Below are positions 21,062 to 24,060 of a stretch of 64,000 bases of DNA, one piece after another. A program made the position numbers and the translations under genes. This DNA comes from Dictyostelium discoideum (Eukaryota): positions 4,064,001-4,128,000 of the forward strand of contig CM000152.2 of NCBI GenBank assembly GCA_000004695.1. Reading direction: 5' to 3'. Every line of letters begins with the position of its first letter. Within the stretch, counting starts at the first letter, position 1. The notes beneath the pieces were generated by a model. The model made no database searches. It worked only from the letters and a program-made list of their open reading frames with translations, and had not been told where the DNA came from.

Positions 21062-21754
21062 GGTGAATCAGGATTTAAAAATAAATCAATCTCAGAAATA
21101 GTTAAAGAAATTTATGAAAATATCGATGGAATGACAATGAGTGGTAAAAAAGATGGAAATTCAAACATTGGTGGTTTCATTGCAACAAGACATAAGGAAT
21201 GGTATGATAAAGCAAGTATTGTTAATATCATTTATGAAGGATATGTAACATATGGTGGTATGACAGGTAGAGATATGGGTGCAATGGCTCAAGGTTTAAA
21301 TGAATCAATGGATTTTGAATATTTAAAATCAAGATGTAAACAAGTTGAATATCTTGCAAATAAACTTGATAAATATGGTGTTCCATTTCAAAGACCATTT
21401 GGAGAACATGCGTTATTCATTGATGCAAAGAAAATACTTGGTCATATTCCAATTGATGATTTAATTGCTCAAACATTAGCTATTGAAATTTATTTAGAAG
21501 GAGGTGTAGGAAGTGTTGAAATTGGCACCCTTTTAGCCGATAGAGATCCAATTACTCAAGAAAACTGATATCCTCAATTAGAGTTTGTAAGACTAGCAAT
21601 TCCAAGAAGATCATATACAAATAATCATATGAAAGTAGTAGCTGTAACACTTAAAAATGTTTATGATAAAAGATTAAAAGTTAAAAGTGGTTATAAAATT
21701 ATTCATGAAGCACCAATTCTCAGACATTTTACTGTTGAATTAGAAAAGTTATAA
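21062..21754 (+). pseudogene. Tryptophanase/tyrosine-phenol-lyase-like (beta-eliminating lyase) C-terminal fragment
   Basis: Open frame from 21062 reads ... EIVKEIYENIDGMTMSGKKD ... GGF ... VTYGGMTGRDMGAMAQGL ... GVPFQRPFGEHALFIDAKKILGHIP ... AIEIYLEGGVGSVEIGTLL ... RDPITQEN (TGA) YPQLEFVRLAIPRRSYTNNHM ... KIIHEAPILRHFTVELEKL. This is colinear with the C-terminal half (from about residue 250) of bacterial TnaA/TPL. No N-terminal half, an in-frame stop, and no ATG. Confidence 0.6.
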
Positions 21755-21895
21755 ATAAAAAATTTATCAAATAAAATAAATAAATAAAATCTATGAAATT
21801 AAAACATATCTATGATTTTTTATAATTATTTTTTTATTTTATTTTAATTAATATGTCTTTTTTTTTTTTTCAATTTGAAAAAAAAAAAAAAAAAA

Positions 21896-22645
21896 TTAAA
21901 AAGGTAAGTTTCCAAGAACTTTTGGTAATTGGACTGATGATTTTAATTTTAATTGTTTAGAATTTGGTGGATTTAAACAAATACTTGGTAATTGGAAGTA
22001 TGCTGAATCAGCATATGGATTGTAATAGTAATAGTTTGTTAGTGTATATCCACTTGGTGTATTGTTGATATTTTCAGTTGAGCCAGAGATTAATGAACAA
22101 TCTGATTTATCTACAAGGAGACCGACATTTGAAGAGTTACCTAAATCACCTGGATTTACTGAAAACATATCACATTGAACAGTACCTAATTCGAAATCAC
22201 CAACATACTTTAATCCTTCAAGTGATGGAGTAGAGTATGATAATGGTTGTTGGAAACAATAATCAGTACCATTTACATTAACACTAACGTATTGTGTACT
22301 ATTACTACCGAAACCCCAGAGATTACCTTTTGTTTTTGTATTACCATTATCGAATAAAAAGTCAACATACAATTGTTGACCAACCAAATCGATATTCATA
22401 AAACCAGATTCAAGGAAAGATGATTGTTGAATACCACTTGGAGTTGGATAATTTCCATTAAAACTTAACATAACATATGAACTTGAATAACCTGTTGGGA
22501 GTTGGCCACTTGAAGTAAAACATTGTTGTTGACCTACTTGATTTTCAATTTTTGAGTAATCAATTTTATTTGTACCCATACTAAATGATTTACAACAATT
22601 TAATGCAATTGTCATTACTAAAATTAAAGAAAATAATAATTTCAT
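21896..22645 (-). CDS. Secreted 249-aa protein, tandem copy 3
   Basis: Intact ORF, near-identical to copies 1 and 2. Confidence 0.7.
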   Translation of the reverse strand: MKLLFSLILVMTIALNCCKSFSMGTNKIDYSKIENQVGQQQCFTSSGQLPTGYSSSYVMLSFNGNYPTPSGIQQSSFLESGFMNIDLVGQQLYVDFLFDNGNTKTKGNLWGFGSNSTQYVSVNVNGTDYCFQQPLSYSTPSLEGLKYVGDFELGTVQCDMFSVNPGDLGNSSNVGLLVDKSDCSLISGSTENINNTPSGYTLTNYYYYNPYADSAYFQLPSICLNPPNSKQLKLKSSVQLPKVLGNLPF

Positions 22646-22676
22646 TTTTTATTTTTTTATTTATTTATTTATTTTT

Positions 22677-22723
<47 letters not shown>

Positions 22724-23323
22724 TTAATTTATTTATTTATTTAATTATTTATTTATTTATTTTAAATTATTAAAATTATAAAAAAAAAAAAAAAAAAAAA
22801 TTATTTATACTTTTTTTTTTTTTAAGTATCCGATAATATTTTAAAAAATAAATTCAAAAATATTAAGCAATTGATTATCCTGAAAATATTTTTTTTGCCT
22901 GGTTATGATGTCATGTGGTTTCAAAAATTGATTTATTTGAAATATCATATTTATTTATGAAATTTCAAATTTTCTAGAGAAATTAAAAAAAAAACCGTAA
23001 AGTATTTATTTTTTTTTCTTATTAGACGAATATTTTTATAGTAAATAAAAAAAAGATTAAAAAAGAATGTTAAAGAATCTCAGAAAAAACATTTTTTTAT
23101 TTGGATATTTTTTAAAAATAATATCTGAAAATATTTTTAAAAAAAAAAAAACCCAGGCAGTGATATCATAATCTCAATAAAAGATTGTTAACCTGGTACT
23201 AAATTTATTTTTATTTTATTAAATTTTTTATTTTATAATAAAAAATAAAAAAAATAGGATTTTAAATGGTTTTTGTTATTGTTATTTTAGTGGTTTATTT
23301 GTAATTTGAGTTTTTGAGGGGAT

Positions 23324-23362
<39 letters not shown>

Positions 23363-23715
23363 ATCACAAAGTGAGTAATCCAAACTCTGAAAAATAAAAT
23401 GAATATAAAAAAAAATAAAAAATTAAAGATAAAACCCCACAGGTCAAAAAAAAAAAAAAAGAAAATATTTAAATAAATATAAAAATTAAGGGTGGTTGGA
23501 TGTAAAAATTTCAGCATTAAAGTGGTGAAAAGTAATTTTGTGGGTTTGTCGCCTTTTTATTTTTTTATTTTATATGCGACTTAATAAAAATAAAAAATGA
23601 AATTTAAAATGATTTGTTTTTATTTTTTTTATTTTTTTTATTTTTTTTTTTTTTTTAATTTTTAATTTTTAATTTTTTATTTTTTTAATTTTTTTTTTTA
23701 TAATTAGCAATACCA

Positions 23716-24060
23716 GTTGGAGAACATGCGTTATTCATTGATGCAAAGAAAATACTTGGTCATATTCCAATTGATGATTTAATTGCTCAAACATTAGCTA
23801 TTGAAATTTATTTAGAAGGAGGTGTAAGAGGTGTTGAAATAGGTACCCTTTTAGCTGATAGAGATCCAATTACTCACGAAAATAGATATCCTCAATTAGA
23901 GTTTGTAAGACTAGCAATTCCAAGAAGATCATATACAAATAATCATATGAAAGCCGTAGCTGTAACACTTAAAAATGTATATGATAAAAGATTTGAAATT
24001 AAAAGTGGTTATAAAATTATTCATGAAGCACCAATTCTAAGACATTTTATGTTGAATTAG
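23716..24060 (+). pseudogene. Shorter tryptophanase-like C-terminal fragment (array unit 4)
   Basis: Begins abruptly at ... PFGEHALFIDAKKILGHIPIDD ..., fused directly to the AATTAGCAATACCAG motif that elsewhere precedes the pirin copies. Ends ... ILRHFMLN*. Confidence 0.55.

Follow-up and report, generated by a model that had tools for sequence, protein, structure and literature searches.

Does the gene on chromosome 3 of Dictyostelium discoideum that is listed as a candidate horizontal gene transfer (HGT) from bacteria still encode an enzyme, or is it the relic of one? The question is raised by a 64,000-nucleotide stretch of that chromosome from strain AX4 (contig CM000152.2, positions 4,064,001 to 4,128,000 of the forward strand; hereafter the window, whose own numbering is used throughout), a very AT-rich DNA (GC ~20%) that contains fragments of a tryptophanase-like gene (tnaA, encoding TnaA); exact protein matches confirm D. 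discoideum as its source. The AX4 annotation divides the largest fragment, fragment 1, into DDB_G0281127 (170 aa; UniProt Q54UE3, "Putative beta-eliminating lyase-like protein") and DDB_G0281129 (41 aa), open reading frames (ORFs) that lie on either side of a TGA codon. DDB_G0281127 is the Beta_elim_lyase entry among the candidate HGTs in Table 2 of Sucgang 2011 (PMC3188802), which assigns it a bacterial origin, the bacterial function "aromatic amino acid lyase" and a D. purpureum ortholog, and which reports every candidate as embedded in a bacterial clade; this was the only paper found in a literature search for DDB_G0281127. As cited in PMC8537960, the 2005 genome paper (Eichinger 2005) counted "two beta-eliminating lyases" among 18 HGT events, and these two are likely to be DDB_G0281127 and DDB_G0281129. 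The candidacy of the locus for HGT is already known; what is new is its status as a pseudogene with a reconstructable history. The published entry has DNA identical to fragment 1 and figures in the lists as a functionally uncharacterised gene whose ortholog is found in D. purpureum, whereas we find a 5'-truncated, nonsense-bearing remnant accompanied by three partial copies, and a sister genome that keeps the N-terminus. New too are the Bacteroidota-type relatives, the host-like codon usage and the evidence for independent inactivation. Taken together, the fragments are very probably non-functional remnants (a unitary pseudogene plus duplicated pieces) of a host-adapted tnaA that an ancestor of D. 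discoideum acquired from a Bacteroidota-like bacterium.

Fragment 1 lies in the third unit (C) of an array of four tandem units, A to D (Table 1). From 21062 it reads in one plus-strand frame of 230 codons, with a TAA at 21752-21754 and, in translation, a single in-frame TGA. Its whole length can be aligned with residues 250-478 of the 479-aa tryptophanase 8sbg from the Protein Data Bank (PDB; E = 1.9e-89, ~65% identity), and its match to the Pfam family Beta_elim_lyase (PF01212) scores 89.1 bits (cutoff, 27 bits; E = 4.1e-25), covering profile positions 177-286 of 288 only. The pyridoxal phosphate (PLP)-lysine motif SGKKD, at 21140-21154, is aligned with SAKKD of 8sbg and with SGKKD of tyrosine phenol-lyase (TPL). 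An earlier note on this DNA had described two plus-strand fragments that are colinear with the C-terminal half of TnaA or TPL and that lack an N-terminus. Both statements held: all the motifs it quoted are present, and tblastn searches with P0010, P0008 and the N-terminal 101 aa of the sister genome detected neither the N-terminal nor the central part of the gene in the window, and nothing beyond the two fragments. Two short 3' tails of the gene, at 15302-15357 and 18056-18117, had not been mentioned in the note. The note had also reported stops in the fragments, which is true of fragment 1 but not of fragment 2, where the lesion is a 1-bp frameshift and no in-frame stop occurs. Likewise, the span that it assigned to them, 21062-24060, does hold both fragments but also includes an unrelated, intact gene on the minus strand, DDB_G0281131 (21896-22645).

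Which kind of lyase the fragments come from can be judged from the same comparisons. Like Bacteroidota-type TnaA (8sbg_A, 479 aa), the remnant keeps the S-x-K-K-D motif, LAIPRR and the RHFT C-terminus; unlike that enzyme, it is without residues 1-~246, carries a premature stop and has had invariant residues replaced. With the TPLs (2ycp, 2ez1, 1tpl) it is colinear and shares the fold family (E ~1e-60), but it scores 303 bits with 8sbg as against ~211 bits with the best TPL. The other solved tryptophanases match it with E values of 8.5e-57 to 3.9e-26 and with 96-196 bits, at or below the 211 bits of TPL. At the position of TPL Arg381 (motif "SMERG"), which we take to be the position that tells TPL from tryptophanase, the remnant has Ile ("SVEIG"), as in tryptophanases, and the nearest database matches of the C-terminal half carry tryptophanase names. 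On these grounds, the remnant belongs with the tryptophanases rather than with the TPLs.

The architecture of the enzyme is incomplete, with the N-terminal arm and large PLP-binding domain (~residues 1-250) missing from the window. Without the first half of the PLP-binding domain (its N-terminal part), no copy in the window is predicted to be capable of making an enzyme. In addition, unit C carries lesions at invariant positions. Where unit C has the TGA, unit D and the sister genome read AGA, and Arg occupies the corresponding column in 100% of 119 bacterial homologs; the TGA is also present in L074, a contig of an independent D. discoideum assembly (read set SRR28564542) that is 98.8% identical to window 20681-21885. 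Besides this change of Arg to a stop in NRYP, unit C has G114E (in GGHA) and R149G (in G(V/I)R(G)VE), both of which hit 100%-conserved columns. The idea that R149G is the loss of the carboxylate-binding Arg404 of TPL was rejected, because in the 8sbg/TPL alignment Arg404 aligns with the retained Arg of "VRL"; R149 is a different invariant Arg. Of the 79 columns that are >=95% conserved in bacteria, unit C keeps 75.

Two database models needed separate inspection. The protein P0123 ("...QENWYPQ...") was considered as evidence for a strain that has TGG instead of TGA, and this was rejected since the underlying contig L074 reads TGA and the W stems from translation with genetic code 4. P0123 is a 205-aa "protein" (L074 457-1074), and the gene caller evidently applied code 4 to a low-GC eukaryotic contig; read-through artefacts of this type could mislead pseudogene calls in AT-rich eukaryotes. 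The second model, DDB_G0281127 itself, starts with "MSGESGF", which seemingly needs a one-codon exon (ATG/GTAATT, 20693) spliced over ~363 bp to ...tatatag/TCT at 21059. This first exon looks like an annotation construct and not a real start.

The relatives of the remnant are bacterial. After the Dictyostelium cluster, the best 119 matches in a search with the C-terminal half are 59-66% identical to it, and the named relatives among them are Tenuifilaceae, Bacteroidales, Bacteroidia, Sunxiuqinia and KSB1. In a collection of species-representative genomes, all 72 of 72 confirmed loci belong to Bacteroidota (Bacteroidales, Prolixibacteraceae, Rikenellaceae/Alistipes and Muribaculaceae), with 57-66% identity over the best segment and 58-63% where the whole fragment is spanned. 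The relatives of the N-terminal 101 codons preserved in the sister genome are likewise Bacteroidota-type, with 62-74% identity. An exhaustive search of 1.84 billion representatives gave 62% and 57% for the best two matches, followed by partial matches of 55-60%, while other lineages spanning the full fragment reached at most 48%. In a bootstrapped neighbour-joining tree (229 columns), 85.5% of replicates join Dictyostelium, which has a long branch, to the Bacteroidota-type clade. Among the top 120 matches of either protein half, D. discoideum and D. cf. discoideum were the sole eukaryotes. Thus, homology search, in which the best non-Dictyostelium matches are Bacteroidota-type, and phylogeny both bear out the bacterial affinity that the earlier note had surmised. 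Its suggestion that an intact parental copy may exist elsewhere found no support: neither the C-terminal nor the N-terminal protein search returned an intact dictyostelid copy, although a paralog of less than ~59% identity could escape them, and the only D. discoideum proteins found by either were the fragment models. With disabling lesions present and no intact copy found, the remnant is probably a unitary pseudogene. The note's reading of the locus as a decaying, horizontally acquired gene in a duplicating array agrees with the bacterial relatives, the lesions and the four-unit array.

The position of D. purpureum deserves separate mention. In a published tree its tryptophanase was placed with Naegleria and ascomycetes (PMC8537960), and its gene has a GC content of 32% (PMC8537960 supplement). 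The reported orthology with this gene, and with it any date for the transfer, is to be regarded as putative. One sequence, P0218, was considered as a dictyostelid sequence and candidate for the D. purpureum gene, and was rejected because it falls in a Planctomycetota/Acidobacteriota-type clade; composition screening of 150 representatives, together with the naming of ten, revealed no dictyostelid among them. It is unlikely, though worth bearing in mind, that the remnant and D. purpureum tnaA are different tryptophanase lineages that result from separate acquisitions. The remnant would then be a younger transfer into the D. discoideum complex that was selected and afterwards lost independently at least twice. 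This reading arises because more than 100 bacterial clusters are closer to the remnant than D. purpureum is, and because of the published placement with Naegleria and ascomycetes.

The history of the locus can be read in most detail from a sister genome. The best match, P0001, comes from "Dictyostelium cf. discoideum" (GCA_054859205.1), where both flanks of the locus, L001, run colinear with the window: L001 1-7409 corresponds to window 6669-13921, and L001 13080 onward to window 26153 onward. Between these same neighbours, L001 has a single pirin / lyase / ependymin-like unit. Its lyase starts with an ATG followed by 101 authentic N-terminal codons (MEIHFAENYKIKMIEPI...LPTHQGR), which are 68% identical to bacterial P0010. 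Because L001 keeps the true start and N-terminus between the same neighbours, a full-length tnaA once stood at exactly this position. The L001 gene is itself disrupted. Its N-terminal block is followed by a 46-bp copy (9885-9930, with its source at ~10165-10210) that has GGAGCTG on both sides, and then by the C-terminal half from "KNKS"; ~150 codons have been lost from the centre of the gene, and the last eight residues are altered through a 1-bp deletion. No introns were found within the 101 + 220 codons of the L001 lyase. The junction at L001 9870-9945, with its 46-bp templated insertion and repeated ATCAATGGA, is a complex event, which suggests that it may have arisen by replication template switching.

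The AX4 copy was truncated at a different junction. Window 21058 corresponds to L001 ~9391 (aligned stretch ~9372-9391), ~190 bp upstream of the L001 tnaA start codon, and what has been deleted in AX4 is the promoter, the start codon and ~246 codons. True tryptophanase codons start at 21059, because L074 codes S-R-E-P-G-Y at 21059-21076, which matches the bacterial T-R-E-E-G-Y. Degenerate tryptophanase was considered for the codons that precede 21059 ("I V L G I *"), and rejected, as this stretch aligns with L001 intergenic DNA upstream of the start codon. L074 shares the junction with the window. An L001-like allele is not the ancestor of the AX4 structure, since L001 is without the R-E-x-G-Y codons that both AX4 and L074 keep, and since its junction is self-contained. 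The alternative that L001 "gctggt" is homologous to AX4 "tctggt", which would make the junction a shared one, was rejected, because GGAGCTG is a second copy of the sequence with which the N-terminal block of L001 itself ends. From these junctions we conclude that the two lineages appear to have been disabled independently.

The divergence between the two copies points to selection on the gene until fairly recently. An alignment of AX4 unit C with L001, 220 codons without gaps, shows 50 differing sites, of which 17, 8 and 25 fall at codon positions 1, 2 and 3. With stop codons left out, the Nei-Gojobori method gave 46 differences, 19.8 synonymous and 26.2 non-synonymous, and hence a synonymous rate (dS) of 0.165, a non-synonymous rate (dN) of 0.052 and a ratio (omega) of 0.32, like that of the intact ependymin-like neighbour (0.32-0.38). 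Neutral divergence was simulated on the same sequence under three mutation spectra. With the spectrum from aligned non-coding DNA, the median omega was 1.51 and none of the 2000 simulations (0/2000) gave an omega as low as that observed; with a uniform spectrum, the median was 0.92 and the probability of an omega at or below the observed one 0.0005; with kappa = 4, the values were 0.65 and 0.0085. A new stop codon arose in 77%-98% of the neutral simulations. Unit D served as a third sequence to split the changes by branch (112 codons). Those confined to unit C comprise seven non-synonymous ones, including the change of Arg to a stop and the loss of a 100%-conserved Arg, and three synonymous ones, which is about neutral; the L001 lineage plus the AX4 stem has ten and nine, respectively, which indicates constraint. 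The simplest reading would be constraint until fairly recently, followed by neutral drift of the AX4 copy since about the C/D duplication, and we interpret the low overall omega in combination with the neutral unit-C branch as a sign that the gene may have died recently.

Based on these data, the following history can be proposed. An ancestor of D. discoideum would have acquired tnaA from a Bacteroidota-like bacterium, and the codon usage of the gene would then have adapted to that of the host. At the split between D. discoideum and D. cf. discoideum, a full-length gene would have been present between the pirin and ependymin-like genes and under purifying selection. In the D. discoideum lineage, a deletion would have taken the promoter and the first ~246 codons, after which the pirin / tnaA-remnant / ependymin-like unit may have been amplified to four tandem copies. 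Separate deletions would have cut the remnant to 114 codons in unit D and to ~20 codons in units A and B, whereas unit C, the longest copy, would have drifted neutrally, with the gain of a nonsense codon and the loss of invariant residues. In the sister lineage, the gene would have been lost independently, through the internal deletion with its templated insertion.

Several points weigh against this history or its parts. Firstly, the scan of species-representative genomes that yielded the 72 loci was biased by its peptide patterns, and for Dictyostelium a place inside the Bacteroidota-type clade and one beside it are about equally supported (55% of bootstraps). Secondly, the D. purpureum protein (DPU_G0057350) that is the reported ortholog is absent from the top 120 matches of both halves. 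Thirdly, the order in which the 5' deletion precedes the amplification is an inferred one, and units A, B and D are without the junction. Fourthly, the Nei-Gojobori counts are small, and the synonymous changes are without a polarising outgroup. Finally, the right-hand breakpoints of the two lineages are ~16 bp apart (window 21059 against an equivalent of ~21075, L001 ~9940), a coincidence of ~2% if breakpoints are random. Both right-hand breakpoints lie beside a AAAAATAAA run, which may be a coincidence or mark a fragile site.

The proximity of the breakpoints would fit a gene that had been killed by one shared internal deletion before the two lineages split, with a second deletion (between, for instance, the two ATGGA motifs at L001 9388-9392 and 9929-9933) turning an L001-like allele into the AX4 form, and with the low omega as an artefact of statistics or composition. 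The CTGGT-like pentamer after both junctions, the suitable placing in L001 of the 5-bp ATGGA microhomology and the small number of substitutions counted all fit this explanation. We nevertheless consider it improbable. L001 is without 12-18 bp of genuine tryptophanase codons (R-E-P-G-Y) that are present in both AX4 and L074, so that a further deletion would be required, and the GGAGCTG at the L001 junction, being a copy, is not homologous to the AX4 sequence. Furthermore, the observed omega falls under each of the three neutral nulls, and a bias in composition should raise it rather than lower it. Lastly, the branch that separates L001 from the state shared by units C and D has 10 non-synonymous to 9 synonymous changes, as against ~15:4 expected.

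The constraint could also have another cause, namely that the C-terminal half became a domesticated, truncated protein, a ~200-aa ORF starting at MSGKKD and selected for a non-catalytic role. A long ORF with a shared first Met is indeed retained in both lineages (199 aa for L001; 145 aa, up to the TGA, for AX4), the overall omega is low, and most of the replacements derived in L001 are conservative (M71I, R90K, L101I, L125F, R160K, A193V). Against this, AX4 and two other D. discoideum sources have the premature TGA, the apparent read-through allele (P0123) is a translation-table artefact, the changes specific to unit C are neutral and fall at invariant residues, and deletion has gone unchecked in units A, B and D; a 3' frameshift is present in L001 too. 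Judging from fold-type I architecture and the 8sbg alignment, moreover, the fragment begins within the large PLP-binding domain, is without most of it and is unlikely to fold independently. Domestication is very improbable on these grounds, and a selected, domesticated C-terminal ORF in the sister lineage would be a more exotic reading still.

The codon usage of the remnant bears on two further explanations. Its GC content at third codon positions (GC3) is 0.105, compared with 0.148 for a neighbouring host gene and 0.34-0.78 for the Bacteroidota homologs. The codon-usage comparison that the earlier note had proposed thus shows a fully host-like gene, and the low GC3 implies long residence in the amoeba lineage. 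Entirely host-like codon usage would also be expected of an old eukaryotic beta-eliminating lyase that was inherited vertically, and D. purpureum, Naegleria and fungi are among the scattered eukaryotes for which tryptophanase genes have been reported (PMC8537960). Yet all the named close relatives of the remnant are bacterial, there is a wide gap between the Bacteroidota-type matches and other lineages, Sucgang 2011 (PMC3188802) places each candidate within a bacterial clade, and the L001 codons are free of introns; vertical descent is highly unlikely. Bacterial contamination or an assembly artefact, conceivable in principle because Dictyostelium is grown on bacteria and contaminating reads are common, is effectively refuted by the GC content of the remnant (29%) and its GC3, by its contiguity with Dictyostelium genes, and by a locus structure that is common to AX4, a second assembly (KAM9950026.1) and read set SRR28564542 and is syntenic in the sister species. 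Host flanking genes, sister synteny, independent assemblies and GC3 alike place the remnant physically in the host chromosome.

Our preferred reading, an acquired bacterial tnaA that has decayed, can be compared with laterally acquired tryptophanases of other protists, which have been described in Trichomonas vaginalis, Entamoeba histolytica and Mastigamoeba balamuthi (PMC4053834, PMC8537960). There, as here, a bacterial tnaA was taken up by a bacterivorous or gut-dwelling protist. In contrast to D. discoideum, which lost its gene to decay, the genes of those protists are intact and indole is made. The reported donors differ as well, that of the Entamoeba tryptophanase being a relative of Fusobacterium (PMC8537960). 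The consequence is that one of the 16-18 textbook candidates for bacterial transfer to Dictyostelium is a non-working relic in the reference strain. Because it is truncated and nonsense-bearing, its proper annotation is that of a pseudogene, and it should be left out of counts of functional acquisitions. Comparing it with the D. cf. discoideum locus further provides a clear and datable case of a host-adapted, selected transfer that was dropped independently in sister lineages, which bears on the durability of HGT-derived metabolism (indole from tryptophan) in a bacterivore. Its importance is modest, since it involves ordinary pseudogene decay and no new kind of biology.

Table 1. Features of the tnaA-remnant array; positions are those of the window.
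Feature	Position	Strand	Remarks
Four-unit tandem array	13916..25339	.	pirin (+) / tnaA remnant (+) / ependymin-like 249-aa gene (-)
Array unit A	~13916-17009		
Array unit B	~17119-19460		
Array unit C	~19705-23434		
Array unit D	~23435-25339		
Pirin copy, unit A	14245-15227		
Pirin copy, unit B	17532-17981		
Pirin copy, unit C	19976-20614		
Tryptophanase 3' tail, unit A	15302..15357	+	~56 nt, corresponding to last ~22 codons, with internal gaps; abuts pirin 3' flank
Tryptophanase 3' tail, unit B	18056..18117	+	structured as in unit A
5' truncation junction	21044..21061	+	homology to L001 intergenic DNA through 21058; tryptophanase codons from 21059
Main tryptophanase remnant (fragment 1), unit C	21059..21754	+	codons ~247-478 of 479-aa tryptophanase plus native TAA stop
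In-frame TGA	21566..21568	+	replaces Arg codon; splits remnant into two annotated gene models
Second remnant (fragment 2), unit D	23713..24071	+	last 114 codons; AT-rich non-homologous DNA before it
Ependymin-like 249-aa gene	15565-16314	-	open
Ependymin-like 249-aa gene	18329-19078	-	open; exact match to DDB_G0281121
Ependymin-like 249-aa gene	21896-22645	-	open; exact match to DDB_G0281131
Ependymin-like 249-aa gene	24225-24974	-	open; exact match to DDB_G0281135

The whole AX4 array (four units, with a unit of ~3.7 kb) corresponds to the one unit of the sister genome at L001 7546-11942, and this difference in copy number reflects either a lineage-specific amplification in AX4 or a collapse in the sister genome. 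Units A and B are without an equivalent of 20708-21683, and only the tryptophanase tail remains beside the pirin 3' flank. Imperfect 18-bp repeats at 20690-20707 and 21684-21701 (AAAATGGTAATTATATTA, AAAAGTGGTTATAAAATT) border exactly the segment that is missing in these two units, and they probably mediated its deletion. Unit D has neither a pirin gene nor the first 111 codons of the remnant.

Fragment 2, the copy in unit D, is in frame from 23713 to 24054 and is 90% identical to fragment 1 at the amino-acid level; at the nucleotide level, 21391-22941 matches 23709-25258 at 88%. It has no stop codons in frame, and its 1-bp deletion, between 24049 and 24050, lies ahead of the original stop codon (24069-24071). 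For a 37-aa ORF of fragment 2, no annotated protein was found by exact look-up. The 1-bp deletions of unit D and of the sister copy (L001 ~10590) are independent events, at most ~10 bp apart, in or beside one T-run (CATTTTACT).

As for the neighbouring genes, the pirin gene is intact only in unit A, where it has two exons (110 aa and 187 aa), the last few residues of the 110-aa exon probably being intron read-through. Compared with L001, the copies in units B and C have internal deletions of ~385 bp and ~343 bp, respectively, and are probably pseudogenes. The 249-aa genes match the Pfam family Ependymin_amoebozoa (PF25544, from the L001 annotation). This ependymin-like family is large in D. 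discoideum, with 31 sequences in one 90% cluster and several loci on chromosome 3, and pairwise omega among the copies in the array is 0.16-0.47.

A final observation concerns the search of representatives. Seven of the proteins that it returned (P0141, P0142 and P0147-P0151) are ~850-930 aa long and have two matching stretches each. P0141, a tryptophanase from a metagenome-assembled genome of Deltaproteobacteria, contains two complete tryptophanase-like halves in tandem, and these ~850-930-aa proteins look like a fused, double-length lyase family.

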